From contig DDWQ01000011.1 of the NCBI GenBank assembly GCA_002345745.1, positions 85,995-149,994 of the forward strand: a stretch of DNA of 64,000 bases, read 5' to 3'. The stretch is from Candidatus Moranbacteria bacterium UBA2282. GTDB taxonomy: Bacteria; Patescibacteriota; Minisyncoccia; Moranbacterales; UBA2206. A model generated the notes under the pieces. That model was given only the letters and a program-made list of their open reading frames with translations. It was not told where the DNA came from and did not search any database. The position numbers and the translations under genes are program-made. Positions 7,082 to 59,646 of this stretch are shown in pieces. Each line of letters starts with the position of its first letter. The stretch's first letter is position 1.

Positions 7082-7684
7082 ATGAAAATAATTACTATTT
7101 CAGGTGTCGACGGCTCAGGAAAATCTACGCAAATTGAGCTTTTGAAAGAATATTTAGAATCGCAAAATAAGCGGGTTTTCTATTTTCACGCCATCGAGTT
7201 CGGTTTGGCTAATAAATTAGCGCGGTTCAAACATAGCTATTGTCTGCTCTGCAAAATCAAATCACCTTCTGCTACCAAAAGTGTCACCCGGGCTAATTGG
7301 CTACAAATCCAATTGCGCAAAATATTTCTAATTATTGATATTTGGCGATTTGATAAATTAGTTAAAAAATTAAACAAAGAAAATTTTGACTATCTTTTAA
7401 GCGATCGTTATTTCTACGATAGTATTATTAATATCAAATATTTATCTGAAACAACTTGGACACCCAGTGTCCAAGTGAAAAAACCAGATGTATCATTTTT
7501 TCTTGATATGAACCCGGAACAAATTATGCAACGCGAAAGAAAGCCAGATCAGGGTCTGGAATATTTACAGAAAAAAACAGCTCTATTCAAAGCTAAAATT
7601 GTTGAATGGAATATGAAAATTATTGATGCCAATCAGTCCAAAGAAGAACTTTTTAACACCATAAAAAATATTCTAGCTTTATAA
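7082..7684 (+). CDS. Thymidylate kinase (Tmk)-family P-loop kinase with an unusual insertion
   Basis: P-loop GVDGSGKST, DRYFYDS (Tmk DRY motif), and FLDMNPEQIMQRER lid-like region. A roughly 40-aa insert follows strand 2. Confidence 0.5.
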   Translation: MKIITISGVDGSGKSTQIELLKEYLESQNKRVFYFHAIEFGLANKLARFKHSYCLLCKIKSPSATKSVTRANWLQIQLRKIFLIIDIWRFDKLVKKLNKENFDYLLSDRYFYDSIINIKYLSETTWTPSVQVKKPDVSFFLDMNPEQIMQRERKPDQGLEYLQKKTALFKAKIVEWNMKIIDANQSKEELFNTIKNILAL

Positions 7685-7720
7685 ACTTTACGGACTTTAT
7701 AAACTTTTAACTTTATATAT
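7685..7720. repeat. Short array with 9-bp periodicity (ACTTTnnnn units)
   Basis: actttacgg actttataa actttttaa ctttatat, the same unit family as the other intergenic arrays. Confidence 0.4.
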
Positions 7721-22571: not shown

Positions 22572-23741
22572 TTACTTAGAAACTTCTTGATATAGTTCAA
22601 AATATTGTCGAGCCACTTCTTGCCAACTCATTTTTTCCGCTAGCTGGCGACTAACTTGGCTCATTTTCTCACATAGCTCTGGATTTAATATTAATCTTTC
22701 AATTCTTTCCGCCAAGTCTTCCCTGCTACCCATTGCAACTATGAAGCCATTTTCTCCTTCCGTCACCAGTTCTTTAGTTCCGCCCGTCTCTGTCGCGATA
22801 ATTGGAAGTCCAGTCGCCAAGGCTTCTAGCATCGCATTACTCATTCCTTCATTGAAGGATGGCAGAATAAAGACATTTGCTTCTTGATAGTAGTTCGCTG
22901 TTTCTTCTCTAGGAATGCGTCCTAAAAATTGCACATTATTTTCTAATTTTAACTTCTTTGCCAACATAACTAAATTTTCCTTTTCATCGCCATCCCCCAT
23001 TATTTTCAAAAGAATATTAGGATATTTTGGCAAAAGCTGTTTCACTGCTTTAATCAAAAATTCCAACCCCTTGCGTTTTGTCACGCGTGAAGCACCAGGA
23101 GTAATAACAAATTTATCCAATATTTTTTTATTCTGATTGGGTTTGAAATTATCAATGTCGATGCCATTGTGAATAACCCCGATTTTCTGACTCGGTCTTG
23201 CCTTGAGTGCCAAATCTTTCAAACCATCACTATTAGAAATAACAGCATCTGACTTTTTCCAAACATATCTAATAATTGGCAAGAGAATATAATATATCCA
23301 ACCAAACCTATCGCTATACCCCGGAACGTCTGAACCACGCAAAGACACAATGTAGTGCAGATTATATTGATATTTCAATAGTAGCGACAAAAAACCGCAC
23401 GGCACAGAAAAAAAGGAATGCGTTAAGTCATATTTATTTTTCTTAATCAGCTTCTTAGAAAAAAAATAAGCTTTCCAAGAATATACCAACAAATCTTTTT
23501 GCGACTGAAAATGCAGATTATTTTCATTTTTTCCAATCGGAAGCTTGTGAATTTGCACGTTGCTACCAATTTTTTCCAAATGATATTTATCATCGATTGA
23601 TGAGGTTACTAAATCGACTTCCAAATTTGGAATTTTCGCAAACTCGCCTAAAATATAGGCGGTTGCATTAGCTGCTCCTCCTCCAAGTGGTGGATATTCA
23701 TAGTTAAAAAAAAGTATTTTCATAAAATTCAGCGCTACCAA
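22572..23741 (-). CDS. GT4-family glycosyltransferase
   Basis: SFNEGMSNAMLEALATGLPIIATETGG...NGF motif. Confidence 0.85.
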   Translation of the reverse strand: MVALNFMKILFFNYEYPPLGGGAANATAYILGEFAKIPNLEVDLVTSSIDDKYHLEKIGSNVQIHKLPIGKNENNLHFQSQKDLLVYSWKAYFFSKKLIKKNKYDLTHSFFSVPCGFLSLLLKYQYNLHYIVSLRGSDVPGYSDRFGWIYYILLPIIRYVWKKSDAVISNSDGLKDLALKARPSQKIGVIHNGIDIDNFKPNQNKKILDKFVITPGASRVTKRKGLEFLIKAVKQLLPKYPNILLKIMGDGDEKENLVMLAKKLKLENNVQFLGRIPREETANYYQEANVFILPSFNEGMSNAMLEALATGLPIIATETGGTKELVTEGENGFIVAMGSREDLAERIERLILNPELCEKMSQVSRQLAEKMSWQEVARQYFELYQEVSK

Positions 23742-23905
23742 ATAATAAAAAACATAAAAGTTCTGTTTGGGAAGTCTTTGTTTCTCTGATATTTTCCTAG
23801 GGGCGTGTTGAATGAGGGAAAATATTAGCTAGAAACAAAGTGGTTCGAGTTAAGTTTTATGTTTTTTATTATTTGGCAATTTAGTTCTTACACGCTTTCA
23901 TTATA

Positions 23906-23943: not shown

Positions 23944-25290
23944 TTACAGTTTATCTCCCCGGCCAATGGCATAATATTCAAATCCGGCCTTTTTTATGAA
24001 TGGAATATCAAACAAATTGCGACCGTCAAAAATCACTGGATTGATTAGCAATTTTTTCATACGCTCTAAATCAGGCGAGCGATATTCCTCGGTCTCAGTA
24101 GCAATTATAAGTGCTTCGCATCCATCTAGAAGGCTATATTTATCCATTTTTTCATAACTAATGCCCTCCCGATTAGCTAGATAAACATTTTTAGCTTCTT
24201 CAACTGCTAGTGGGTCATAAGCCACAATAGTAGCTCCGTGTTTGAGCAACTCTTCAACGATTGTAATTGCCGCAGATTCACGCATATCATTAGTCTCAGC
24301 CTTAAAAGCCAAACCCCAAAGAGCAAACTTTTGCCCAGTCAAATCCGCACCAAAACGTGCCACTACCTTGCTTGAAATAATGGTTTTCTGATAATCATTA
24401 ACATCTTCGATAGATTTCAAAAGATTGCGATATGGCTCTGGAACTCCAATTTTTTCCGCAAATTTAATGAGTGCTTTCACGTCTTTTGGAAAACAACTAC
24501 CGCCATATCCACAACTGGCATATAGAAATTTATTACCAATCCGCGGATCACTGCCCATTCCCTTGGCAATTTGCTTTACATCACCACCAATCATTTCACA
24601 AATTGCGGACATAGTATTAATATATGAAATCCTTTCCGCCAATATAGTGTTAGAGGCATATTTTATGAGTTCTGCCTCATGAACACCAACATGAATAAAA
24701 CGATCACCGCTCATCATAAAAGGCTTATATAGTTGATGTAATTTTTCAGCTACTTCAATATTGTCTGTGCCAACCACTACGCGACTTGGCTCCATCATAT
24801 CAGAAACAGCCCGACCTTCAGCCATAAATTCAGGATTACTAACGACATGAAATTCAATATTTTCTCCACGCTTATCCAATTCTGCTTGAATAATAGCTCG
24901 CACATTGTCAGCTGTTCCAACTGGCACAGTTGATTTATCCGCGATAATCAATGGTTTTTGCATTCGACTGCCGATTTCATATGCCACACTCTCCACAAAA
25001 CGCAAATCAGCACTACCATCTTGACCAGGAGGTGTCCCCACAGCCACAAAAACAATTTCAACATTACTAAGTGTTTCATCATAGTCTGTCGTAAAATGCA
25101 ACAATTTATGTTCCATTCCTTTTTTTACCAATTCTTCCAAGCCAGCCTCATCAATTGGCAAAATCCCTTGCTTGAGATTTTCAATTTTCTTCGCATCAGT
25201 ATCCAAGCAATAGACAGTATTTCCCATCTTGGCAAAAGCTGCTGCTAGTGGCAAGCCCACAAACCCAATTCCAATTACTCCGATTTTCAT
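23944..25290 (-). CDS. ugd: UDP-glucose 6-dehydrogenase (nucleotide-sugar dehydrogenase)
   Basis: MKIGVIGIGFVGLPLA Rossmann N-terminus. Catalytic GYGGSCFPKDV motif. 448 aa. Confidence 0.88.
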   Translation of the reverse strand: MKIGVIGIGFVGLPLAAAFAKMGNTVYCLDTDAKKIENLKQGILPIDEAGLEELVKKGMEHKLLHFTTDYDETLSNVEIVFVAVGTPPGQDGSADLRFVESVAYEIGSRMQKPLIIADKSTVPVGTADNVRAIIQAELDKRGENIEFHVVSNPEFMAEGRAVSDMMEPSRVVVGTDNIEVAEKLHQLYKPFMMSGDRFIHVGVHEAELIKYASNTILAERISYINTMSAICEMIGGDVKQIAKGMGSDPRIGNKFLYASCGYGGSCFPKDVKALIKFAEKIGVPEPYRNLLKSIEDVNDYQKTIISSKVVARFGADLTGQKFALWGLAFKAETNDMRESAAITIVEELLKHGATIVAYDPLAVEEAKNVYLANREGISYEKMDKYSLLDGCEALIIATETEEYRSPDLERMKKLLINPVIFDGRNLFDIPFIKKAGFEYYAIGRGDKL

Positions 25291-25390
25291 ATGTTTTAGT
25301 CTTTAAAGTCATAAAGCTGAAAGTCCATAAAGTCGATTTGAAAAAATGCTTTATGAACTTTATGAACTTGATAGACTTTTGACTTAATTG
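25291..25390. repeat. Intergenic palindromic array of 9-bp periodic units (AAAGTC half, then GACTTT half)
   Basis: gtctttaaa gtcataaag ctgaaagtc cataaagtc ... ctttatgaa ctttatgaa cttgataga cttttgact. Shares acttgatagacttt with the 53552 copy. Confidence 0.6.
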
Positions 25391-26353
25391 TTAATTATTG
25401 ATAATTGATTTGATTGAATAATTCATTTGGTCTCGATTTTTGTAATAATTCTTCACCAAGATATCTGCGAGCAATCCTGAAATAAAAAGTTGCATACCAG
25501 TCAAAATAAAAAATATCCCGATAAGTGGCCAGATTTTTTCCGCCAGAGAGGCATTAAAAAAGATTTTTTCGATAGCCATCCATATTAGAATAAATGTGCC
25601 TACAACTGAAAAAACTATTCCAGCACCACCAAACAGATGCAGTGGACGATTTGCATATTTTCTCCAAAACCAAATAGAAATCATATCTACAAAGCCTTTG
25701 ATAGCTCGCTTCCAATTATATTTCGTCACGCCATGAATTCTGGGATGATGCGAGACGACCACTTCACCAACTTTGTAACCTTGCATTTCCAAAATTGCTG
25801 GCATAAAGCGATGCATTTCACCAAACAAATCCACTTCCTCAAAACAACTTCTTTTGTATGCCTTCAAACTGCAACCACTATCATGAATCTTATCTTGAAT
25901 TAGAATCTTGCGTAAAAGATTTGCCGTGCGTGAAAAAAACTTTTTCATGAAAGTGTCTTTGCGATGAAAACGCCAACCGGAAACAACATCAAATAATCCT
26001 CTGTCCATTTCTTCTAGCAACAATTTAATATCCGCGGGGTCATTTTGCAAGTCGCCATCCATCGTCACAATAATTTCGCCCGTCGCTTCTTTAATACCGG
26101 CATCAAAAGCGGCTGTTTGTCCAAAATTTTTGCGGAATTGAATCAACTTCAAAGGCGAAAGATTAACAGCTTTCTCTACGGTCTTGTCTTTTGAACCATC
26201 ATCAATAAAAATTATTTCAAAGCTTTTTCCCAACGCCACACAAGCGTTTTTAATTCGCTCATGCAACAGTTCAACATTGCCTTCCTCATTATACAGCGGT
26301 ACGACAACTGATAAATAAATTTTGTCTGTTTTTAACTTTGCATCTTCTTCCAT
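25391..26353 (-). CDS. GT2 polyprenol-phosphate glycosyltransferase (ArnC/GtrB-like)
   Basis: LSVVVPLYNEEGNV, DDGSKDKT, DGDLQNDP motifs. C-terminal TM helices. Confidence 0.85.
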   Translation of the reverse strand: MEEDAKLKTDKIYLSVVVPLYNEEGNVELLHERIKNACVALGKSFEIIFIDDGSKDKTVEKAVNLSPLKLIQFRKNFGQTAAFDAGIKEATGEIIVTMDGDLQNDPADIKLLLEEMDRGLFDVVSGWRFHRKDTFMKKFFSRTANLLRKILIQDKIHDSGCSLKAYKRSCFEEVDLFGEMHRFMPAILEMQGYKVGEVVVSHHPRIHGVTKYNWKRAIKGFVDMISIWFWRKYANRPLHLFGGAGIVFSVVGTFILIWMAIEKIFFNASLAEKIWPLIGIFFILTGMQLFISGLLADILVKNYYKNRDQMNYSIKSIINN

Positions 26354-26455: not shown

Positions 26456-26510
26456 CTTAGTCTACTTAGGACTCTACTTAGGACGGTCCTAAGTAGACCT
26501 AAGTAGATTA
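26456..26510. repeat. REP-A element (extended nested palindrome around the CTTAGGAC-G-GTCCTAAG core)
   Basis: tctacttaggactctacttaggac g gtcctaagtagacctaagtaga. Same core as the copies around RAYT-1. Confidence 0.7.
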
Positions 26511-29825: not shown

Positions 29826-30010
29826 ACTTAACTATGAACCAATATAACATATTTATATCTTTTGTCAATACCTCAATTTTATGGCTTAATACAGCCCACT
29901 TTACCCAAGCCATCTTTTCCAAAATGGCTGGCGCAGAAAGGCAGGAGAGAAAAATTCGTCGTGGGTGAGATACTAACTTAGGCAAACTTAGGACGGTCCT
30001 AAGGAATATC
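29822..30010. repeat. Copy A of a roughly 185-bp repeated element ending in REP-A
   Basis: Near-identical to 30987..31175. Contains the GCCATcttttccaaaATGGC hairpin and ends gtgggtgagatactaacttaggcaaacttaggacggtcctaagg. Confidence 0.7.
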
Positions 30011-30060
30011 GTGGATGAGATACTAACTTAGGCGAACTTAGGACGGTCCTAAGGAATATT
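29961..30060. repeat. 50-bp tandem duplication carrying two REP-A cores
   Basis: The unit gtggDtgagatactaacttaggcRaacttaggacggtcctaaggaatat occurs twice. Confidence 0.7.
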
Positions 30061-30065
30061 ATCTT

Positions 30066-30285
30066 GCAGTTGTCAATACCTGAATTTTATGGCTTAAAAT
30101 TAGGATTTTTCTGCTCTTTTCACTGAGGACGATCCTAGAGAATAGCGACGCTTATCCAAGCCATCTTTTCCAAAATGGCTGGTGCAGAAAAGCAGGGGAG
30201 AAAAATTCATCGTGGGTGAGATACTAACTTAGGCAAACTTACTTAGGACTACGAACTTAGGACGGTCCTAAGTAAACTAAGTAAA
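30066..30285. repeat. Diverged copy B of the 185-bp element plus an extended REP-A
   Basis: Shares ttgtcaatacctSaattttatggcttaa and ccaagccatcttttccaaaatggctgg...gtgggtgagatactaacttaggcaaactta with copies A and C. Ends in acttaggactacgaacttaggacggtcctaagtaaactaagtaa. Confidence 0.6.
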
Positions 30286-30286
30286 T

Positions 30287-30916
30287 CTAATCTTCCAAAT
30301 AAAACTTGCTCATTTCTTTTCGCTCTTTCATGCCAACGACTTTTTCCATACAGAAAACACTGTAATCTTCCGCATTTTTGAATTGTCCAAGCACTTCATC
30401 TTTTTGACATCCAATCCCCGATTTTCCCATATATTCTGAGAAACTGCACCATGGATATTTTTCAGCTTTTTCAATGCCATGAATTTGACTATTGCAATTC
30501 ACATACGCCGACATATACAAAAGTAAATCATTTGAATTTATGTGCACAGACTTGAATCTTCCCTGAAATAAAACTCCTGATCGATTATATCTTTTGTTAA
30601 AATACATAGCATAGCCAGTGCCAATCTTTTTCATAAACATCGCAATACCGTTTTCTTTATTCTCTCTTAGAATGAGATGGAAATGATTTTGATTTAAGCA
30701 ATATGACACCACATCAACCAATCTTTCTTCTGGTCTTGGACGAACCTTATCCTCATCTCTCATTTGAATTGGATTTTCAGTATTAAAAAATATCAAAGAC
30801 CTAAGCAGACGGGTATAATCCGTATTCCGCTTGAATATTTGTCTTTTTTCTACTCCACGATTGAAGATATGATAATATTCGCCAATCGTGAAAAATTCTC
30901 TTCGTTGCATAAACAA
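30287..30916 (-). CDS. REP-associated tyrosine transposase (RAYT; IS200/IS605 TnpA-like HuH Y1 enzyme), copy 1
   Basis: EYYHIFNRG, the HuH motif NHFHLIL, and GRFKSVHINSNDLLLYMSAYVNCN (catalytic Tyr region). REP-A palindromes flank it on both sides. Confidence 0.75.
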   Translation of the reverse strand: MFMQRREFFTIGEYYHIFNRGVEKRQIFKRNTDYTRLLRSLIFFNTENPIQMRDEDKVRPRPEERLVDVVSYCLNQNHFHLILRENKENGIAMFMKKIGTGYAMYFNKRYNRSGVLFQGRFKSVHINSNDLLLYMSAYVNCNSQIHGIEKAEKYPWCSFSEYMGKSGIGCQKDEVLGQFKNAEDYSVFCMEKVVGMKERKEMSKFYLED

Positions 30917-40601: not shown

Positions 40602-40652
40602 TGCTTAATAATACCTAATAAATGCCGAAAATACAATGATCCCTTACTTAAA

Positions 40653-40800
40653 AACCAAGATACAAGATAGTTAGTGAAGAAACAAGGTACAAGATACAAA
40701 CATCAAACAATATTCAATAATCAAATTTCAATATTCAAACTTTTTTGGTTATTGTCTTTTGGAATTTGTATCTTGTTTGGTACCTGTTTCTTGGTTATTG
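40653..40800. repeat. Long imperfect palindrome built from CCAAGATACAA/TTGTATCTTG units
   Basis: Left half ccaagatacaagata...caaggtacaagatacaaac; right half tttgtatcttgtttggtacctgtttcttgg. Confidence 0.55.
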
Positions 40801-40812
40801 GTAATTATTAGC

Positions 40813-41172
40813 CTATTTACCCTCTATTTTGTTTATGATGGTTGATAATATATTTTTTATCTCGTTTGCTTCTCGCTTGATGTCTTGCATACAATCTTTT
40901 AGCTCTGGGTTTGCTTCTTCAATAAGGTCTAGCCAGTGAATTGTTTCCTTGGCTTCTTTTCTAGCAATCTTCATTCGCATTATCAAATCTTTTTTGCCTA
41001 AAGAATCATTTGCTTCTCGATAATTTGCTCCAACAGAACCAGCCGAGCCTACAGCTTGCCCTGTTAGGCGATTGTTTATTGAATTTTTTGGCAAAGAAAT
41101 ACACAATCTAACTACCCGTTTTCCGAATTCAGTAGTTCTTTCCTCTAAATCAAATTTGCGATTATTTTCCAT
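40813..41172 (-). CDS. Four-helix-bundle protein (23S rRNA intervening-sequence protein family)
   Basis: 119 aa. AVGSAGSVGANYREA and KETIHWLDLIEE segments typical of this family. Confidence 0.7.
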   Translation of the reverse strand: MENNRKFDLEERTTEFGKRVVRLCISLPKNSINNRLTGQAVGSAGSVGANYREANDSLGKKDLIMRMKIARKEAKETIHWLDLIEEANPELKDCMQDIKREANEIKNILSTIINKIEGK

Positions 41173-41229
41173 AGATATTTTTTTAATGTTTGTTTTTTGT
41201 ATTTTGATGCTTGAAATTTGTTTGGTTAT

Positions 41230-41300
41230 TGTATCTTGGTGTTTGTATCTTATTTTTGCGTTTGTATCTTGCTTAGCGTTTGTATCTTAAGCATTATTTG
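41230..41300. repeat. Iteron-like direct repeats: 4 copies of GTTTGTATCTT spaced 15-18 bp apart
   Basis: ttgtatcttggt, gtttgtatcttat, gcgtttgtatcttgc, gcgtttgtatcttaa. Confidence 0.6.
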
Positions 41301-41321: not shown

Positions 41322-42662
41322 CTATTTTTTAATAATTTTCCAATATCCTCCCTTGTCGGGACCAACCCTTTTTAGCAAATCTTTTTCCTTTAATTTTGAG
41401 ATATCTCTTTTAATAGTTTTTTCATTAACACCTGCCTTTTTGGCTATTTCTGGAATTGTAATTCTATTATTATTTCTAATAATTTCCACAACAATATCTT
41501 CTCGATTTTCAGGGACATTTTCAGGGACATTTTCAGGGACATTTTCTAATGCCATTCTTTTGAAAATTATAGAGAACCAATTCTCGTTGGTTTCAATTTT
41601 TGGATTTGGAAGACCATATTCTTTCATGGCTTTTTTCATCCGCAGAATTCCAGACCCTATTTTCTCCACCAAATCCATTCTCTGCATCAAGCCAAATAGA
41701 AGATTATTTCTGGACAAACTTCTTTTACCCAATTCTTTTATCGTCATTCCCCGCACTAGCCCTCCGGGATTAGTTATTTCAACTCGATCAGAAAAAATAT
41801 AAATCTGAATATTCGCACCTGTCACGAAATAGTTTCTGTGCGCAATTGCATTCAGGATTGCTTCGCGCAATGCGTCTTCTGGTAGTTCTAATTTTTCTTC
41901 TCGCGGTCCACCTTTTATGATAAATTCTGTGTTCAACTTTGAACGCAGATAATCCATGGCATTCTCATAATTGCTAAATAGGTCAGCATCAAATTCTTTT
42001 CGGTCCAATATTCTGTATTTTGTCCTTCCATAAAAAAGCACGCATGTAATCGTTGACTGCAAAAGAAACTTTGTAATATCATTGGAAAAAAGAAGTACAC
42101 CGGCATTTTTCATTTTATCATCAGAGACCAAATTAAGATTTGTCAAAATGTCGCGTGTTGGCAAAATTTTTCTTATATGAGATAGTCGTAAAAAGTTATT
42201 AAAAGATTTTTTATTTAAATCCTTTTTGATATCAAATTTTTCATTAACCCTCTCATCAAAAAGAACCAGGCCTTCTTTTTGAAAAAAATATTTGATTTCA
42301 TTTCTCGTAAGTTGCTGACTATTGGCTCCTTGGCGCAAGTAAAATTTTCCCACAATTGAATATGGTTTTTCTTTGCCCTCTGGGACATCAACAATCAAAA
42401 TACCCTCAATTTCTTGCAAATGTATGGTCATTTTCGGATCAAGATTTCTGCCAATAACCTGAATTTCTGATTTTAATTTGTTGGTAATTTTGATTTCTTT
42501 TTTTATTCCGGAATCAGTAATTCCAATAAATATCTTTCCCCCAGAAGCATTGGCAAAAGCACACATTTCTTTTCCAATTGTGGAACTATGCGACTCTTTA
42601 AATTCAATATTATAGCCTTCTCCTTGGCTGATATAAAATTCTAATTCTTTTTTCATTAACAT
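41322..42662 (-). CDS. AlbA_2 (Schlafen-like) plus HATPase_c_4 (RecG-C-like) plus wHTH putative ATP-dependent DNA-binding regulator
   Basis: N-terminal YNIEFKES...CAFANASGG (AlbA_2/divergent AAA). The C-terminal wHTH is RITIPEIAKKAGVNEKTIKRDISKLKE. It contains an ENVPENVPENVPEN repeat. Confidence 0.6.
   Translation of the reverse strand: MLMKKELEFYISQGEGYNIEFKESHSSTIGKEMCAFANASGGKIFIGITDSGIKKEIKITNKLKSEIQVIGRNLDPKMTIHLQEIEGILIVDVPEGKEKPYSIVGKFYLRQGANSQQLTRNEIKYFFQKEGLVLFDERVNEKFDIKKDLNKKSFNNFLRLSHIRKILPTRDILTNLNLVSDDKMKNAGVLLFSNDITKFLLQSTITCVLFYGRTKYRILDRKEFDADLFSNYENAMDYLRSKLNTEFIIKGGPREEKLELPEDALREAILNAIAHRNYFVTGANIQIYIFSDRVEITNPGGLVRGMTIKELGKRSLSRNNLLFGLMQRMDLVEKIGSGILRMKKAMKEYGLPNPKIETNENWFSIIFKRMALENVPENVPENVPENREDIVVEIIRNNNRITIPEIAKKAGVNEKTIKRDISKLKEKDLLKRVGPDKGGYWKIIKK
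41507..41546. repeat. 12-bp tandem repeat (3 units) inside a CDS, encoding (VPEN)n
   Basis: agggacattttc repeated three times. Confidence 0.8.
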
Positions 42663-43548: not shown

Positions 43549-43675
43549 ATTAATTGATAAGTTTGTTATAATGATATTATATCACCATACACAAAAACTG
43601 TCTAGTTCCAATTTTTTATATATTCAGGTTGAGAAGCACAGTGCTTAATTTGAAAGTTTAAATACGCTTGAAATA

Positions 43676-43745
43676 ACCAAGATACAATACTTAATTTAAA
43701 ATTTATAATTTAAAATTACTCTTTGGTTTATTGTATTTGTTTGAT
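43676..43745. repeat. Right-hand copy of the AACCAAGATACAA repeat plus a degenerate inverted partner
   Basis: aaccaagatacaatac ... attgtatttgtttg. The same 13-mer occurs at 40653. Confidence 0.5.
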
Positions 43746-43800
43746 AATTGATCCATTGAAAATTTATTCCGCATGTATTTTTCTGATATTGGGTCATTTT

Positions 43801-44956: not shown

Positions 44957-45289
44957 CTACGCACTTACCAAAGATGCTTTTTCTAATTTCACAATGCGAG
45001 TTTCATGATTGTCAGTGACGGTCTTTTTGGCCTTGTTTTCTAATTTTTCATCAATATTATCAAGACGGAGTTTTATATCCACAATATCTGTTTTTATATA
45101 CACAATATCCGACTTCATATCCACAATGTCAGACTTTATTTCATCAATATCTTCCAAAATCAAGTCAACAGTTTTCTTCACATCATTCAAGCCTTCACCA
45201 AAAACCTTGAAATCACTGCGAATATCCTCAAGCATTATTTCTACTTGAGCTTTAGGCATAAAGTCTTTATTTTCTACTTGTTCTTCCAT
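44957..45289 (-). CDS. Heptad-repeat coiled-coil protein
   Basis: DIDEIKS/DIVDMKS/DIVYIKT/DIVDIKL heptads encoded by 21-bp tandem DNA repeats. Confidence 0.45.
   Translation of the reverse strand: MEEQVENKDFMPKAQVEIMLEDIRSDFKVFGEGLNDVKKTVDLILEDIDEIKSDIVDMKSDIVYIKTDIVDIKLRLDNIDEKLENKAKKTVTDNHETRIVKLEKASLVSA
45075..45158. repeat. Four 21-bp tandem repeats inside a CDS
   Basis: atatccacaatatctgttttt, atatacacaatatccgacttc, atatccacaatgtcagacttt, atttcatcaatatcttccaaa. Confidence 0.75.
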
Positions 45290-48097: not shown

Positions 48098-48187
48098 ATT
48101 TTTTTATTTTAATTTAATTACATTTTTATTATACTCCATCCCTCAAAAATACAAAACGCTTAAACACGCTTTGCCACACATATATTC

Positions 48188-48208
48188 TGTAGGGGTTTCA
48201 CCCCTACA
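48188..48208. repeat. REP-B copy (TGTAGGGGT-TTC-ACCCCTACA), immediately 3' of RAYT-2
   Basis: 9-bp perfect arms with a 3-nt loop. Confidence 0.75.
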
Positions 48209-48210
48209 GA

Positions 48211-48849
48211 TTATTCTTCCAGCAAATATCTTCTCATTTCATTTCTGCGTTGATTTATTTCCTTCGCATTTACATCAACAAATTTACCATAATCACTTTT
48301 ATTCTTAAACTGATTTAGAATTATTTCTGGATTGCATAACTTTTCAACATCATCACCCAAATAGCTTTTCAAACTTGACCTAAATTCTTTTACATCATGA
48401 ATAACATTATTACCATTCACATAAGCTGACAGATGCAATAAATATTCATTACTATTTATATGTATAGCCTTAAATCTTCCTTGAAATAATGAACCATTTC
48501 TTTTATTTCTATGATTAAAATATCCTGTATATCCACCGCCTATGCGTTTCATAAATTCCGATATACCACCATCACTCAACTGCTTTAGTATAAAATGAAA
48601 ATGATTTGGAAGCAGATTGTAGACAATTATTTCCACTAACGCACCATTCTGTAGGGGTTTCACCCCTACATCATTTACTTTACTTTTTATATATAAACTA
48701 ATGATGGGTTCGATTTCATTAAATTCTTTCATTGATTTAAGAAACCTGGCATAATCATATTTATCCAAAAAAATATCTCGCTTCTCCACTCCACGATTAA
48801 ACACGTGATAATATTCGCCATTTACAAATTCAAAAGAAAAGTTTCCCAT
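48211..48849 (-). CDS. REP-associated tyrosine transposase (RAYT), copy 2
   Basis: EYYHVFNRG, PNHFHFILK (HuH), GRFKAIHINSNEYLLHLSAYVNGN. Flanked by REP-B copies, and contains one REP-B in frame. Confidence 0.75.
   Translation of the reverse strand: MGNFSFEFVNGEYYHVFNRGVEKRDIFLDKYDYARFLKSMKEFNEIEPIISLYIKSKVNDVGVKPLQNGALVEIIVYNLLPNHFHFILKQLSDGGISEFMKRIGGGYTGYFNHRNKRNGSLFQGRFKAIHINSNEYLLHLSAYVNGNNVIHDVKEFRSSLKSYLGDDVEKLCNPEIILNQFKNKSDYGKFVDVNAKEINQRRNEMRRYLLEE
48650..48670. repeat. REP-B copy inside the RAYT-2 coding sequence, in frame
   Basis: tgtaggggtttcacccctaca encodes ...VGVKPLQNG... within the protein. Confidence 0.75.
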
Positions 48850-48874: not shown

Positions 48875-48895
48875 TGTAGGGGTGAAACCCCTACA
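48875..48895. repeat. REP-B copy (inverted-loop orientation), 5' of RAYT-2
   Basis: tgtaggggtgaaacccctaca. Confidence 0.75.
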
Positions 48896-50139: not shown

Positions 50140-50160
50140 TGTAGGGGTGAAACCCCTACA
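50140..50160. repeat. REP-B copy
   Basis: tgtaggggtgaaacccctaca. Confidence 0.75.
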
Positions 50161-50181
50161 AAATTATTTCTTGCTTCGATC

Positions 50182-50958: not shown

Positions 50959-51020
50959 AGCGTCTAGTCTATAAAGCCTATAAAGTCTATAAAGTCCTTA
51001 AAGCCTTACTAATTAAATTA
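50959..51020. repeat. 9-bp periodic array (GTCTATAAA-type units)
   Basis: gtctataaa gcctataaa gtctataaa gtccttaaa gccttac. Confidence 0.6.
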
Positions 51021-51368: not shown

Positions 51369-51410
51369 TCTTTTGACTTTATGAACTTTATGGGCTTGAT
51401 GGACTTTCTA
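51369..51410. repeat. 9-bp periodic array (GACTTT-type units)
   Basis: cttttgact ttatgaact ttatgggct tgatggact ttc. Confidence 0.55.
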
Positions 51411-52369: not shown

Positions 52370-53551
52370 TTATAATTTAGATCTTAAATAATTATAATAT
52401 TCTTCGTTATGGCTATTTTTATTGGTATATTTTTTTAAAACAGTAACTCGAGCTTGCTTTCCCATTCTAACACGAAATTCCTTATCGACAATTAATTTTT
52501 CTAATTTCTCCACCCATTCCGTGGTGCCATTCGCCACAAAGCCATCAACACCATCGGAAATCGCTTCACAAAAGACTTGTGTCGCACTAGCTACGGTTGG
52601 AACATTCATAATTCCGGCCTCAAAAAATTTAAGCTCTGATTTTGATTCACAATATGGATCACCAATTTCAAGCGGCGCTAAATTTATATCAACGTTAGAA
52701 ATATTTTCGAAATGTTTATCCCTTGGCACAAATGGAGATTGTTCGATTCTATCCTTGAATTTATTTAATTTATTTTCAACTTCTAGCGGACCAGCCAAAA
52801 TTAATTTTGTTTGCGGATATTTTTCCATGATTTCCAATAATGCATCGGCGATTGTGGCAAAATCACGATTATGACTCATAGTTCCACTGAAATATCCGAT
52901 TCTAATAAAACTATTCTTTAAATTTTTATTATTGCAAATAATTTTTTCTGTAACTTCCAAATCATGATCAGAAATTTTATTCTTAACGATAAAAACTTTT
53001 TTATTATAACCCGCTAAGATATTCGCAAGATATTTTGTCGAAGTTGAACAAACCTTAATATATTCGTCTCTTAATATTTCTTCACCCACACCTTTAGCAT
53101 ATTGTTTTTTTTCAAAATAACTCATTTTTTCATAGCTACCCGTTGCATGCATATATTTTGTGTCAAAAACCAAATCATCAGTTTCAAAAATAATTTCTTT
53201 ATTTTGTTTTTTTATATTTTTGATTAACTTTTTTACGCTTGAAGTTACAAGTGTTCGATGAAAAACAAACACGCTAAACTTATTTGCAAATAATGGAAGA
53301 AATGGATTATCTTGCATTGTGACTTCTGCATTAATACCATGTAAATTTAATTCCTCCGCAACTCTGTGCGAACGATAGTCCGCACTATCACCAACTCCTC
53401 CAGTAATAAACAAAACATCTCCTGATTTGAAACTTAAAGCAGTTTTAAAAAAAGTCCTCAAATAACTCAATGATCTTCTTCCGCCAACAATAATTCCATC
53501 TCTTTGCACCGCCGCGATTGCCTTGCCTAATTTTATCAAATATAGATTCAT
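52370..53551 (-). CDS. Putative GT-B glycosyltransferase (GT4-like), paralog of 35699..36859
   Basis: FETDDLVFD, RIGYFSGTMSH, ESKSELKFFEAGIMNVP. Confidence 0.5.
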   Translation of the reverse strand: MNLYLIKLGKAIAAVQRDGIIVGGRRSLSYLRTFFKTALSFKSGDVLFITGGVGDSADYRSHRVAEELNLHGINAEVTMQDNPFLPLFANKFSVFVFHRTLVTSSVKKLIKNIKKQNKEIIFETDDLVFDTKYMHATGSYEKMSYFEKKQYAKGVGEEILRDEYIKVCSTSTKYLANILAGYNKKVFIVKNKISDHDLEVTEKIICNNKNLKNSFIRIGYFSGTMSHNRDFATIADALLEIMEKYPQTKLILAGPLEVENKLNKFKDRIEQSPFVPRDKHFENISNVDINLAPLEIGDPYCESKSELKFFEAGIMNVPTVASATQVFCEAISDGVDGFVANGTTEWVEKLEKLIVDKEFRVRMGKQARVTVLKKYTNKNSHNEEYYNYLRSKL

Positions 53552-53663
53552 AATAATGTAGTCTTTAAAGTCATAAAGTTGAAAGTCCTTAAAGTCTATA
53601 AAGTCGAAAGCTTTACGGGCTTGACGGACTTTTGGACTTGATAGACTTTACAGACTTTTAGAC
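53552..53663. repeat. Intergenic palindromic array of twelve 9-bp units (AAAGTC half, then GACTTT half)
   Basis: gtctttaaa gtcataaag ttgaaagtc cttaaagtc tataaagtc gaaagcttt acgggcttg acggacttt tggacttga tagacttta cagactttt agactt. Confidence 0.65.
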
Positions 53664-54839
53664 TTAGTTAACTTTCCTATAAATTTCATCAATCTTTTGC
53701 GCCGAATTTTTCCAACTAAATGAGGCGGCGCGTTTTTTATTATTTTCACCTTTCACACGTGCCTCCTGTGGATTTTGTGCTAAATACAAAATACCCTCCG
53801 TAATTCCTTCGGCTGACGGCGCGCAGAAATAGCCACCCTCGCCCAGATAATTGCGATTGTTAGCTTTATCAAAACACACCACTGGCAATCCCGCGGACAT
53901 ATAATTCAACATTTTACCGCTGGCTTGATTAGTATCGGAATTCTTCGGATCAATCGCCACGTCAGCTACACAATTAAAAGCTGGCAAGTCGAAATAATTT
54001 AGTGGGCTCACCACTCGTACAAATTTTTCCAACTTATTCTCCCGCACAAACTGGACAGCATAATGATCTGGAAAGCCACCAATCAAAAAGAAAATGTTCG
54101 AATTTTGTTTCACTGTCAATTCAATCGCTCGAAAAAGATAGTCGATGCCTTTGTTTGGCACCAATCCTCCCGAATAGACCACAACAAATTTATCAGCTGG
54201 AATTTCCAGCTCTTTTCGAAGTTCATTTTTGTCCTGCTTTAAATTAAAACTATCTAGATTAGTTCCGTCCAGTATCACTTCGACGCTTTCCTTGTTTTTT
54301 CTGGCATCTTTTATGGTTGCTAAATTTTCCCAAGAACTGACCACCGCCCAATCTCCCAGACTATTGATGAATCTTTCAACTATCTGAAAAAACCATTTCA
54401 AGCCTTTTTTTAGATAACCATGAGAAACCATCTCACCAGTCAAACTGCCATGAAAATCAGCTACTAATTTTATTTTTCTCCAAAAAAGAATTTTCTGTAC
54501 AAGGAAGCCGATCAAAACTCCTTCATGCAAATGACCGTGAATAATGTCTGGCTTTTGTGTACGTGCCAAAAAAAGAACTTTTTTAATAAGCATCAGATCC
54601 AAAATGATTTTTTGCCAATCCGGACCAGCTTCCAATTTTTTATACCAAAAAAGCAAGCGACGGATTCTCCGCACATCAATTTTGGTTTCAATTTCAGCTG
54701 AAATATCTTTACCAATATGATAGGTGGCAATTGTAATTTGATTGCCCAGCTTTTCCAAAGCCAGTGCTTCTTCCAAAATCCGAATATGTGTTCCGCGATC
54801 AGAAAAAAATGGCGTAGGAGCAATAACAAGAATTTTCAT
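53664..54839 (-). CDS. GT4-family glycosyltransferase
   Basis: MKILVIAPTPFFSDRGTHIR N-terminus. C-terminal GKMLNYMSAGLPVVCFD. Confidence 0.8.
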   Translation of the reverse strand: MKILVIAPTPFFSDRGTHIRILEEALALEKLGNQITIATYHIGKDISAEIETKIDVRRIRRLLFWYKKLEAGPDWQKIILDLMLIKKVLFLARTQKPDIIHGHLHEGVLIGFLVQKILFWRKIKLVADFHGSLTGEMVSHGYLKKGLKWFFQIVERFINSLGDWAVVSSWENLATIKDARKNKESVEVILDGTNLDSFNLKQDKNELRKELEIPADKFVVVYSGGLVPNKGIDYLFRAIELTVKQNSNIFFLIGGFPDHYAVQFVRENKLEKFVRVVSPLNYFDLPAFNCVADVAIDPKNSDTNQASGKMLNYMSAGLPVVCFDKANNRNYLGEGGYFCAPSAEGITEGILYLAQNPQEARVKGENNKKRAASFSWKNSAQKIDEIYRKVN

Positions 54840-54951
54840 AAGGATTATATATATTAAGTCAAAAATTCATAAGCTTTATGAACTTATACCAATTTTACCC
54901 CATAAATATCCATTTGGCAAAAGCCTATTTAGGCTATATAATTAAGTAACT
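54840..54951. repeat. Divergent promoter region containing a short 9-bp periodic array
   Basis: ttcataagc tttatgaac ttatacc. Confidence 0.4.
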
Positions 54952-58491: not shown

Positions 58492-59646
58492 CTAGTTCTT
58501 CAAATATTCCAGAGTCTCTTGCGCGCATTTTTCCCAAGAGAATTCTTTTAATTGCTCACGCCCTTTTGCAATCAACTCAATTTGCAGATCTTTAGAAATC
58601 AAAACTTGTTCTATTTGTGTACTGAGTTGTGCTGTATTCTGTGCATCAAAATATAGTGCACCTTCTCCACCAATTTCTCGCAAAGAAGAATTATCCGCTG
58701 TTATCAAAGGCACACCAGCGGCATATGCCTCTAGGATTGTGATGCCAAAGCCCTCATAAAGTGAAGGATAGACAAATACACTAGCCCCCCGAAACAAACA
58801 CCCTACATCGCAAAATTTGAGCCTGCCAGGCATTATGATGTCTTTAGAATAGACGCTATTTCTAGCCTTTTTTTCTATAGATTCCGCGAGCCATGCCTTT
58901 TCTCCCGCTAAAACCAATTTGAGAGCGCAAAAGGAGCTAAGCTCCCAAGCTTGGGAGCTTAGCTCCTTTTGCTTCCGGCTTTTTAATAAGTCAAATGCCT
59001 CAATCAATTTTTCAATATTTTTTCTCGGCTGTAACGCACCAGAATACAAAATATACTCTCCTACTATTCCAAGTTTATTTTTCAATTCTTGCTCTTTGCC
59101 ATGATCACGTGCTTGAGAAAAAACATCTGGACTAAAGCCATGATAGATGACCTGGATTTTATTGGCGTCAATTTCCGGATAAAATTTTATGATGTCATGC
59201 TTGGTCGCCTGTGAAATGGCAATAATTTTGTCTGCCTGCCTAATTGAGTAGTCCGCAAATAAATTTAGTTTGCGTAAATCTTTTGGAGGAAAATATTGTG
59301 GAAAATATTTAAAAGCCAAGTCATGAATAGTCACCACTGTTTTCAAATTTTTTCGACGTAGATATGGCAGAGCCGCCATCGGCATCCACAAAACAGTTGG
59401 TTTTTCTTTCCACACTTCCCATGCAAATCTAATTTGCGTCCACAGGATTGGAAAAGACTTTTGAATAATTTTATAATTTGAAAATTCCGGCGGAGTGAGT
59501 TCCGGATTAAATTTACTTTTGTGATAAATTAAAAACTCGCTCTGTAAATCTAGCTTGCCAAAGTGTTTTAGCAAGTTAAAAATATAGACGCGAGTTCCAT
59601 CAATGCGCTCGTGATCAAGGTCAGCTGCAGAAATTGCAATTTTCAT
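58492..59646 (-). CDS. GT4-family glycosyltransferase carrying an in-frame 46-bp perfect palindrome at the inter-domain linker
   Basis: YPSLYEGFGITILEAYAAGVPLITAD motif. Inserted peptide KELSSQAWELSSF. Confidence 0.8.
   Translation of the reverse strand: MKIAISAADLDHERIDGTRVYIFNLLKHFGKLDLQSEFLIYHKSKFNPELTPPEFSNYKIIQKSFPILWTQIRFAWEVWKEKPTVLWMPMAALPYLRRKNLKTVVTIHDLAFKYFPQYFPPKDLRKLNLFADYSIRQADKIIAISQATKHDIIKFYPEIDANKIQVIYHGFSPDVFSQARDHGKEQELKNKLGIVGEYILYSGALQPRKNIEKLIEAFDLLKSRKQKELSSQAWELSSFCALKLVLAGEKAWLAESIEKKARNSVYSKDIIMPGRLKFCDVGCLFRGASVFVYPSLYEGFGITILEAYAAGVPLITADNSSLREIGGEGALYFDAQNTAQLSTQIEQVLISKDLQIELIAKGREQLKEFSWEKCAQETLEYLKN
58927..58972. repeat. Perfect 46-bp palindrome inside the GT4 CDS
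   Basis: GCAAAAGGAGCTAAGCTCCCAAG|CTTGGGAGCTTAGCTCCTTTTGC. Confidence 0.9.

Follow-up and report, generated by a model that had tools for sequence, protein, structure and literature searches.

The window, the 64-kb stretch of DNA analyzed here, has 34.5% G+C, is dense with genes, and in large part is a polysaccharide cluster. Several gaps between its genes contain arrays of short tandem units with the core AAAGTY or its complement RACTTT, and in two places a pair of arrays, one of them with a different set of units, encloses a small gene (Table 1).

AAAGTC/GACTTT arrays in the window

We found 11 tandem AAAGTY-N1-3-AAAGTY pairs in the window, compared to 0.47 ± 0.72 in shuffled sequences; 0 of 100 shuffles reached 11. 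All 11 pairs (7684-7714, 25320-25334, 50982-50996, 51375-51389 and 53567-53658) lie inside the gaps in which a first-pass annotation had reported AAAGTC/GACTTT arrays, so the arrays are real. The intervals given in that annotation were entire intergenic gaps. Tandem Repeats Finder (TRF) placed period-9 arrays at 7677-7717, 25349-25369, 50969-51006, 51375-51407 and 53560-53658. Over-representation of AAAGTC had been proposed as a check. It holds for the tandem AAAGTY pairs (11 vs 0.47) and does not hold for the single hexamer, which has 28 copies in the window and no overall enrichment. That is, the signal is in the tandem clustering.

The arrays had been described as having a strict 9-bp period, from which it was argued that successive sites lie on different helical faces. 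We found spacings of 7, 8 and 9 nt mixed within one array: core-to-core distances are 8, 7 and 9 in the 25.3-kb copy and 8, 7, 9, 9 and 7 in the 53.6-kb copy. With units of 7-9 nt, there is no strict period, and the helical-face argument fails.

Two of the gaps, 25291-25390 and 53552-53663, contain complete imperfect palindromes, as had been reported. As RNA, these gaps are predicted to form hairpins of -25.2 kcal/mol (z = -5.3) and -29.6 kcal/mol (z = -4.3), respectively. We refer to the two palindromes as hairpins A and D. A longer string that they were said to share, ACTTGATAGACTTT, is present at both 25366 and 53636, and the palindromic center that had been singled out, AAAGCTTT, is indeed the center at 53607. 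Single-stranded DNA hairpins were predicted on both strands for these gene-less copies (z = -2.4 and -2.6 for hairpin A, -4.8 and -5.3 for hairpin D). The upstream gene takes its stop codon from TAAGTC, the first unit of hairpin D.

The arrays at 50959-51020 and 51369-51407 had been taken as separate palindromes. They are two halves of one, split by a 348-nt gene. The halves correspond to an inverted repeat (I5) with 31-nt arms that are 84% complementary and that are predicted to pair around the whole 115-aa open reading frame in both minimum free energy (MFE) and centroid folds. The 5' arm begins directly after the TAG stop codon of an epimerase gene, and the 3' arm stops 7 nt short of the start codon of wzm.

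The remaining two gaps contain less. At 7685-7720 there are tandem units, as reported, and no palindrome: the array is one-armed, with no hairpin (z = +0.4). It overlaps the 3' end of tmk, extends to a flippase gene, and is probably half an element. The gap at 54840-54951 was listed as an array and is not one. It has only a two-unit mini-palindrome, with autocorrelation near background, a fold z-score of -1.7 and no match to the tandem core, and is at most a relic. The window has three full and two partial copies of what we call the family-1 element.

A second element has a different set of units (family 2) and the same architecture. It is the longest inverted repeat in the window (I1), and its arms enclose an open reading frame in the MFE and centroid folds (z = -3.7). 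I1 and I5 are the strongest inverted repeats in the 64 kb, and each encloses one gene of the PF05635 family. Family-2-like units at 43640-43770 were also considered and gave no significant hairpin (z = +0.7).

Table 1. Coordinates of the array elements in the window
Feature	Position	Strand	Description
Hairpin A, gene-less, family 1	25298..25384	-	87 nt, between a GT2 gene (25391..26353) and ugd (23944..25290); ~5 AAAGTY-type units, 13-nt center, ~5 RACTTT units
Hairpin D, gene-less, family 1	53560..53664	-	105 nt, between GT4/GT1 genes 53664..54839 and 52370..53551; ~7 units per arm around the center AAAGCTTT
5' arm of gene-bearing family-1 element	51369..51405	-	AAAGTC CATCAAGCC CATAAAGTT CATAAAGTC
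PF05635/TIGR02436 gene, 115 aa	51021..51368	-	in predicted hairpin loop; four-helix-bundle, Avd-like
3' arm of gene-bearing family-1 element	50966..51007	-	GGCTTTAAG GACTTTATA GACTTTATA GGCTTTATA GACT
One-armed array	7677..7717	+	RACTTT-type units only
Degenerate two-unit mini-palindrome	54856..54886	.	AAGTC..TTCATAAGC / GCTTTATGAACTT, divergent intergenic region
Second element (family 2)	40640..41290	-	other unit set, same architecture; encloses PF05635 gene
5' arm of second element	41173-41290	-	AAGATACAAAC/CAAGATACA units
Second PF05635 gene, 119 aa	40813..41172	-	Pfam 1.2e-14
3' region of second element	40640-40812	-	ends in inverted units of TGTATCTTG type

Often, the upstream stop codon is part of the first 5'-arm unit or directly adjoins it: TAAGTC at 53661-53666, TAG followed directly by AAAGTC at 51405-51410, and TAAAAGTC at ~7898-7905 of L168, a locus from a related genome. 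Units of 7-9 nt with TAA would give stop codons in all three frames over a few units. ATG occurs in the complementary arm (CTTTATG).

The enclosed genes encode PF05635 proteins

The 115-aa protein matches Pfam PF05635 (8.5e-34) and TIGR02436, 'four helix bundle protein' (9.7e-33). It resembles the pentameric structure of XCC0516 (PDB 2gsc; 1.4e-9) and has a weak match to the PHROG 'Avd protein of DGR' (9.5e-5). By these matches, its family is that of the 23S rRNA intervening-sequence proteins (IVPs), homologues of Avd. BLASTP detected no similarity between the two PF05635 proteins of the window (115 aa and 119 aa). Membership in a defense system and carriage by phages were both considered: PADLOC gave no match, and single-protein patterns found no close relatives in viral contigs (IMG/VR).

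The PF05635/TIGR02436 family was reportedly first found in 1993, in Leptospira rRNA intervening sequences. Thousands of genomes have members of it, frequently several each, annotated as 'S23 ribosomal protein' or 'four helix bundle protein'. We know of no catalytic activity for these proteins, and to our knowledge no function has been established since 1993.

Arrays accompany PF05635 genes in many phyla

We found at least 499 relatives of the 115-aa protein in GTDB species representatives. We analyzed the best 80 (63-76% identical) as loci, with neighboring open reading frames called by a simple ORF finder. By the taxon labels that the depositors of the metagenome-assembled genomes had given, most of these 80 are from Patescibacteria and at least 22 are from other phyla; the other labels include Leptospiraceae, Spirochaetota, Gammaproteobacteria, Bacteroidota, Omnitrophota, Cloacimonadota, Ignavibacteria, Bdellovibrionales and Neomarinimicrobiota. 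For family 2, the sample was 80 metagenomic relatives of the 119-aa protein.

Arrays flank the family-1 genes in a fixed orientation. In the 80 loci, AAAGTY is present directly upstream of the gene, on the sense strand, at 1.3 copies per 20 nt, compared to a background of 0.025 (~50-fold), and RACTTT is present directly downstream at 0.8 copies per 20 nt, compared to 0.022 (~36-fold). The opposite orientations of both cores are near background. As in the window, the spacing between units varies (9 nt, n = 338; 7 nt, n = 154; 8 nt, n = 101). Arms have 1-5 units and rarely up to 15. The number of units is not tied to a pentamer: five is not the most common count, and the count in one arm does not correlate with that in the other.

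The type of unit matches the type of gene. At least three AAAGTY cores were found in the arms of 77 of the 80 family-1 genes, and family-2 cores in none of the 80. Conversely, 69 of the 80 family-2 genes have at least three CAAGAWA/CAATAAY cores and none has AAAGTY cores. More divergent PF05635 genes in the same loci are accompanied by still other units (GGATTTG, GATTTA, GAATAAAC, GTTCACRGTT and GAATTT/CAATTT). Similar arrangements are present in cultured bacteria. A PF05635 gene of Riemerella anatipestifer (L170, NZ_CP081938.1 100318..100734) has AAGGTT/AACCTT units on both sides, and one of Nostoc sp. ATCC 53789 (L171, pNsp_c 96451..96828) has GGGAAAA/TTTTCCC units on both sides. Because arrays are found with both families, with the divergent genes and with the genes from cultured bacteria, the architecture is a property of the PF05635 family, and the unit 'code' is specific to each subfamily. 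Gene-less hairpins follow the same rule: across all loci, they were found only near the cognate type of gene (9 vs 0 and 0 vs 4). Inheritance of arms and gene together as one unit could by itself yield the match between unit type and gene type, with no binding of one by the other.

These loci have three other features. In all subfamilies observed, it is the 5' arm that is rich in purines. The Riemerella record, labeled a plasmid, contains lepA and so may be chromosomal. In some family-2 5' arms (L121-L123, L109 and L130), small GC-rich hairpins (GCAACGTAAAGTTGCGTGGCAACCACGTTGCTTTACGC, CTGTCTGCTGACAGGCAGG) interrupt the arrays relative to close relatives such as L120, and look like nested insertions of other mini-palindromes.

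The elements lie inside operons

PF05635 genes and their arrays are typically found between co-directional genes. Both flanking genes are co-oriented with the PF05635 gene in 63 of 74 family-1 loci and 49 of 57 family-2 loci, and a co-oriented open reading frame is directly upstream in 75 of 79 relatives. The gaps beside the PF05635 genes are ~50-75 nt and are filled by the arrays. The neighbors are often polysaccharide genes, and also include genes for RNase Y, Obg, PrgI, NTase/HepT toxin-antitoxin systems and DUF2851. No rRNA was found in the window, and both of its elements are between protein-coding genes.

Promoter or terminator roles for the arrays were considered and rejected. We found no promoter-like site in the arrays, and promoter-like sites were at or below the number expected from shuffled sequence. 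There was also no terminator-like site in or beside the arrays. An intrinsic terminator has a GC-rich stem and a U tract; these stems are instead rich in A+T, with A-rich sequence after them.

These findings bear on the main idea of the first-pass annotation, that the arrays are duplex-DNA sites, akin to operators or iterons, through which a host regulator or nucleoid protein would control glycan genes. All copies in the window are within the glycan cluster, and some repressors do recognize short contiguous direct or inverted repeats, the heptads bound by the omega protein being one example. We nevertheless consider this idea very improbable. The units are 7, 8 or 9 nt long, so the sites are not phased on the duplex. 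The arrays are at junctions within operons, where genes overlap in relatives, and they have no promoter-like or terminator-like signals. They also accompany PF05635 genes whatever the neighbors do, including those beside genes for RNase Y, Obg, PrgI, toxin-antitoxin systems and DUF2851. The part of the idea that may hold is that an oligomeric protein binds the arrays. By analogy with Avd, the likely binder is the pentameric PF05635 protein encoded by the element, rather than a glycan-gene regulator or a nucleoid protein.

The elements are insertions

We compared the operon around hairpin D to orthologous operons in related Moranbacteria-like genomes, found as orthologues of the glycosyltransferase (GT) gene beside this hairpin. 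In L166 and L167, the order GT4-GT-epimerase-wzm is present with an ATGA overlap and 2-nt gaps, with no hairpin and no PF05635 gene. The junction that contains hairpin D in the window is the ATGA overlap in L166 and also in L173, and the junction that contains the gene-bearing cassette is a 2-nt gap in L166 and L167. In contrast, L168 and L169 have a related 100-nt hairpin between the GT4 and GT genes (z = -5.1), the PF05635 cassette between the epimerase gene and wzm, and an additional 81-nt hairpin between the GT and epimerase genes (z = -4.2) that neither the window nor L166 has. There are five gene-less hairpins in 17 kb of L168, and none in L166, L172 and L173. Because flanking genes overlap in related orthologous operons that lack the hairpins, we conclude that the hairpins are insertions.

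At three pairs of occupied and empty junctions, we found a possible target-site duplication, TTAT(A), at one and none evident at the others; the ends are blurred by the unit structure. Paralogues in one genome were 62-86% identical, compared to a median of 64% between copies from different phyla, and were usually no closer. Since paralogues are usually no more alike than copies from different phyla, there is no sign of recent bursts of transposition.

The suggestion in the first-pass annotation of a new MITE-like repeat class largely holds. Hairpins A and D are short and non-coding, have inverted arms, are present in multiple copies, and are polymorphic at orthologous sites, being absent from some junctions. 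A gene-bearing partner with the same arms co-occurs with them; the four-helix bundle that it encodes is not known to act as a transposase.

It is conceivable that these are MITEs or REPINs in the usual sense, that is, DNA moved in trans by a conventional transposase, such as a Y1/RAYT-like enzyme acting on single-stranded hairpins, with the PF05635 gene a passenger whose product does not recognize the arms. The insertion polymorphism at orthologous junctions, the single-stranded DNA hairpins predicted on both strands, and the lack of G.U bias on the sense strand (below) are all consistent with this, and two RAYT-like proteins are encoded in the window beside other families of palindromes. However, those RAYT-like genes are flanked by their own palindromes (CTGTAGGGG..., TTAGGACGGTCCTAA) and not by AAAGTC arrays. 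In addition, the PF05635 subfamily matches the arm type without exception in 160 loci, no transposase is a common neighbor in these loci, which are from many phyla, and none of the compared junctions has a convincing target-site duplication. We regard movement by a conventional transposase as fairly unlikely.

Conservation and pairing of the arms

The 5' arm of the gene-bearing family-1 element (51369..51405) and the corresponding arm in L168 are identical at 29 of 31 positions, whereas identity at four-fold degenerate sites is only 30-49%, that is, saturated. Judged by this alignment, one arm is under purifying selection. Between the two arms of an element, 5.6% of columns are mismatched in the cores and 22.4% in the spacers, and indels are frequent. 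With mismatches concentrated in the spacers, the predicted stem is a series of 6-bp helices separated by small irregularities. Arms from the same locus are predicted to pair somewhat better than arms from different loci (-36.8 vs -31.0 kcal/mol, p = 6e-4). A separate control for arm complementarity, with mismatched loci, was uninformative because all loci share one motif; what it revealed was the conserved core. Mismatches compatible with G.U pairing had no sense-strand excess in either family (61 vs 78 and 60 vs 60), so selection for pairing at the level of RNA is not demonstrated.

Another reading is that the hairpins benefit the host as intercistronic RNA elements that process or stabilize mRNA, or couple translation, in long glycan operons. 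They would then be kept because the operon needs them, with the PF05635 gene an occasional occupant of the loop. In favor of this, the elements occupy only junctions of co-directional genes, where they span the whole stretch between stop and start codons. In addition, their RNA is predicted to fold into stable hairpins with no terminator U tract, one arm is conserved past neutral expectation, and polysaccharide loci are favored. However, in close relatives this operon has overlapping genes and lacks the hairpin, and hairpins are also found beside the unrelated genes for RNase Y, Obg and PrgI. What phyla share is the core sequence itself and not only its ability to pair, each protein subfamily has its own core, and the G.U signature of selection on RNA is absent. 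Our estimate is that a host-beneficial role of this kind is quite unlikely to account for the arrays.

A cassette proposed to be bound by its own protein

Our preferred explanation draws on five observations: the architecture, its conservation across phyla, the subfamily-specific match of arms and protein, the insertion polymorphism, and the purifying selection on an arm. We think it reasonably likely that the arrays are the arms of a cassette that resembles both an intervening sequence and a MITE, and that its own pentameric protein probably binds the periodic stem. The cassette inserts between co-directional genes. In its full form, the arms enclose the small PF05635/TIGR02436 four-helix-bundle gene. 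In its reduced form, the arms abut to give a gene-less hairpin of 90-110 nt, and the two forms are related much as a gene-bearing partner is to its MITE or REPIN. Each arm consists of units of a 1-3-nt spacer and a conserved 6-nt core, so that the paired arms would be 6-bp helices with a mismatch or bulge every 7-9 nt.

The stem presumably forms in the operon transcript. There, it could bring the upstream stop codon and the downstream start codon close together, which would allow the insertion to be tolerated. It may also be a substrate for RNase III, as in rRNA intervening sequences. If, by analogy with Avd, the periodic stem is the ligand of the pentamer, then this binding may underlie the upkeep or spread of both full and gene-less copies. 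Several results count against this proposal: the lack of a sense-strand G.U excess, with single-stranded DNA hairpins equally possible; the lack of a convincing target-site duplication; no sign of recent bursts; unit numbers that are not tied to five; no known catalytic activity of PF05635; and no close relatives in viral contigs.

A broader version of this explanation seems to us possible but doubtful. Stand-alone PF05635/IVP proteins in general would be sequence-specific pentameric binders of tandem units and, with their arms, would make up a new class of mobile operon cassette with no canonical transposase. Their codes (AAAGTC, CAAGATA, AAGGTT, GGGAAAA and others) would serve to maintain or mobilize gene-less hairpins in trans. 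In this version, movement may use an RNA or single-stranded intermediate, akin to Avd acting with a reverse transcriptase.

Comparison to known elements

One close parallel is the 23S rRNA intervening sequence. In Coxiella and Leptospira, an S23p open reading frame is in a stem-loop that is excised from pre-23S rRNA by RNase III, and earlier authors suspected the intervening sequence of being a mobile element whose open reading frame serves mobility (PMC4990558). Like the intervening sequences of Leptospira and Coxiella burnetii, the elements described here have a PF05635 open reading frame in the loop of a (here predicted) stem of terminal inverted repeats, are inserted in the sense direction in a transcribed region, and have forms with and without the open reading frame. 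Unlike them, they are at gene junctions of protein-coding operons rather than in helix 9, 25 or 45 of 23S rRNA. The Coxiella stem was described as a plain 28-bp stem (PMC4990558), whereas the arms here are arrays of 7-9-nt units with a subfamily-specific core.

The elements are like REP/REPIN-RAYT systems in that a gene is bracketed by cognate palindromes, gene-less copies are nearby, and the type of repeat matches the type of gene. They differ in the product of the gene, which is not a Y1 transposase but a small four-helix bundle that has no known motif of a nuclease or transposase. Their arms are built from short tandem units, in place of a single GC-rich stem-loop, and copies are at stop/start junctions within operons. 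The RAYT-like open reading frames of the window (48211..48849 and 30287..30916) go with other palindromes, and we do not place the arrays among REP/REPIN-RAYT systems.

The Correia/NEMIS elements of Neisseria and the ERIC elements of enterobacteria are small inverted-repeat elements near or between genes that are co-transcribed and form long RNA hairpins, which RNase III cuts in the case of Correia elements. Correia/NEMIS and ERIC elements are polymorphic between strains. Their terminal inverted repeats are well delimited, they duplicate the target site (TA for Correia), and we know of no dedicated gene-bearing form. The elements here are likewise small inverted-repeat insertions between genes, with insertion polymorphism and predicted hairpins. 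They differ in their modular arms of unit arrays, their gene-bearing form, and the lack of a convincing duplication at the junctions compared.

The Avd protein of the Bordetella phage diversity-generating retroelement (DGR) is a pentamer, and all five protomers bind an imperfect RNA stem-loop, encoded beside the Avd gene, through the same residues, with flipped-out bases (bioRxiv 10.1101/2023.10.23.563531). The PF05635 proteins are homologous to this pentameric four-helix bundle and also have a predicted imperfect stem at their own gene. By analogy, the periodic 6-bp helices and spacer mismatches would offer repeated contacts of this kind. Unlike a DGR, the elements have no reverse transcriptase, template repeat or variable repeat nearby, and their stems are much longer, repetitive, and enclose the gene.

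Rfam 15 gave no match at gathering score in the window and nothing relevant at E <= 1 around the arrays. Literature searches, including searches with the literal repeat strings, returned no description of the arrays, only general papers on IVPs and Avd. Intervening sequences with an IVP open reading frame were already known, as were IVP genes inside operons, for example between cas genes such as cmr (PMC3936711). What appears to be new is an intervening-sequence-like cassette outside of rRNA, with modular, subfamily-specific unit arms and gene-less derivatives.

The bracketing of PF05635/TIGR02436 genes by arrays of a subfamily-specific 6-nt core gives this family a testable partner. Because the arrays are arms around these genes, they point to a nucleic-acid partner for a family of long-unassigned function, and link stand-alone PF05635 proteins to the RNA-stem binding of Avd in DGRs. 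Our findings suggest that rRNA intervening sequences are one niche of a wider hairpin-cassette element. Since Riemerella and Nostoc share the architecture, questions of binding and processing are accessible in cultivable hosts; proteins WP_004920519.1 (Riemerella anatipestifer) and WP_114083260.1 (Nostoc) are examples. Such cassettes would also explain much of the intergenic DNA that is otherwise puzzling in the streamlined genomes of Patescibacteria. Should the proteins read modular repeat units, they might also be interesting as designable nucleic-acid binders.

Other palindromes and repeats in the window

A REP-like hairpin, CTGTAGGGGT(G/T)(A/T)(A/T)ACCCCTACAG, is present four times (48181-48210, 48648-48677, 48875-48895 and ~50140-50165). 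Among these copies is a RAYT-like gene (48211..48849, minus strand) that matches Pfam Y1_Tnp (1.2e-6) and, below the cut-off, NCBIfam REP_Tyr_transpos (2.5e-7). The gene is also present in L168. Together, gene and hairpins look like a REP-RAYT system in a Patescibacteria genome.

A third family of palindromes, with the core TTAGGACGGTCCTAA, is found at 26461-26507, ~28600, 29959-30059, 30240-30286 and ~31830. It has 10-12-nt tandem units (TCTACTTAGGAC / CCTAAGTAGA), a predicted RNA hairpin with z = -6.0, and a 50-nt tandem duplication. Next to it are a second, weak RAYT-like open reading frame (30287..30916, minus strand; 9e-6) and a fragment that resembles a transposase.

A near-perfect hairpin of ~140 nt occupies 23738-23876, within a 202-nt gap that lies downstream of ugd. 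Its 25-nt outer arms are 96% complementary, and its predicted fold has z = -11 for the minus strand and z = -8.5 for the plus strand. It has no match in Rfam and no relation to the AAAGTC arrays. A perfect 46-nt palindrome (GCAAAAGGAGCTAAGCTCCCAAG / CTTGGGAGCTTAGCTCCTTTTGC) at 58927-58972 is within an open reading frame (58492..59646, minus strand), which is unusual for a coding region. Coding regions also contain a perfect 12-nt tandem repeat (ATTTTCAGGGAC, 3.5 copies) at 41505-41546, in a Schlafen/AlbA_2-HATPase_c_4 gene, and a 21-nt repeat (3.9 copies) at 45072-45152, within the small open reading frame 44957..45289.
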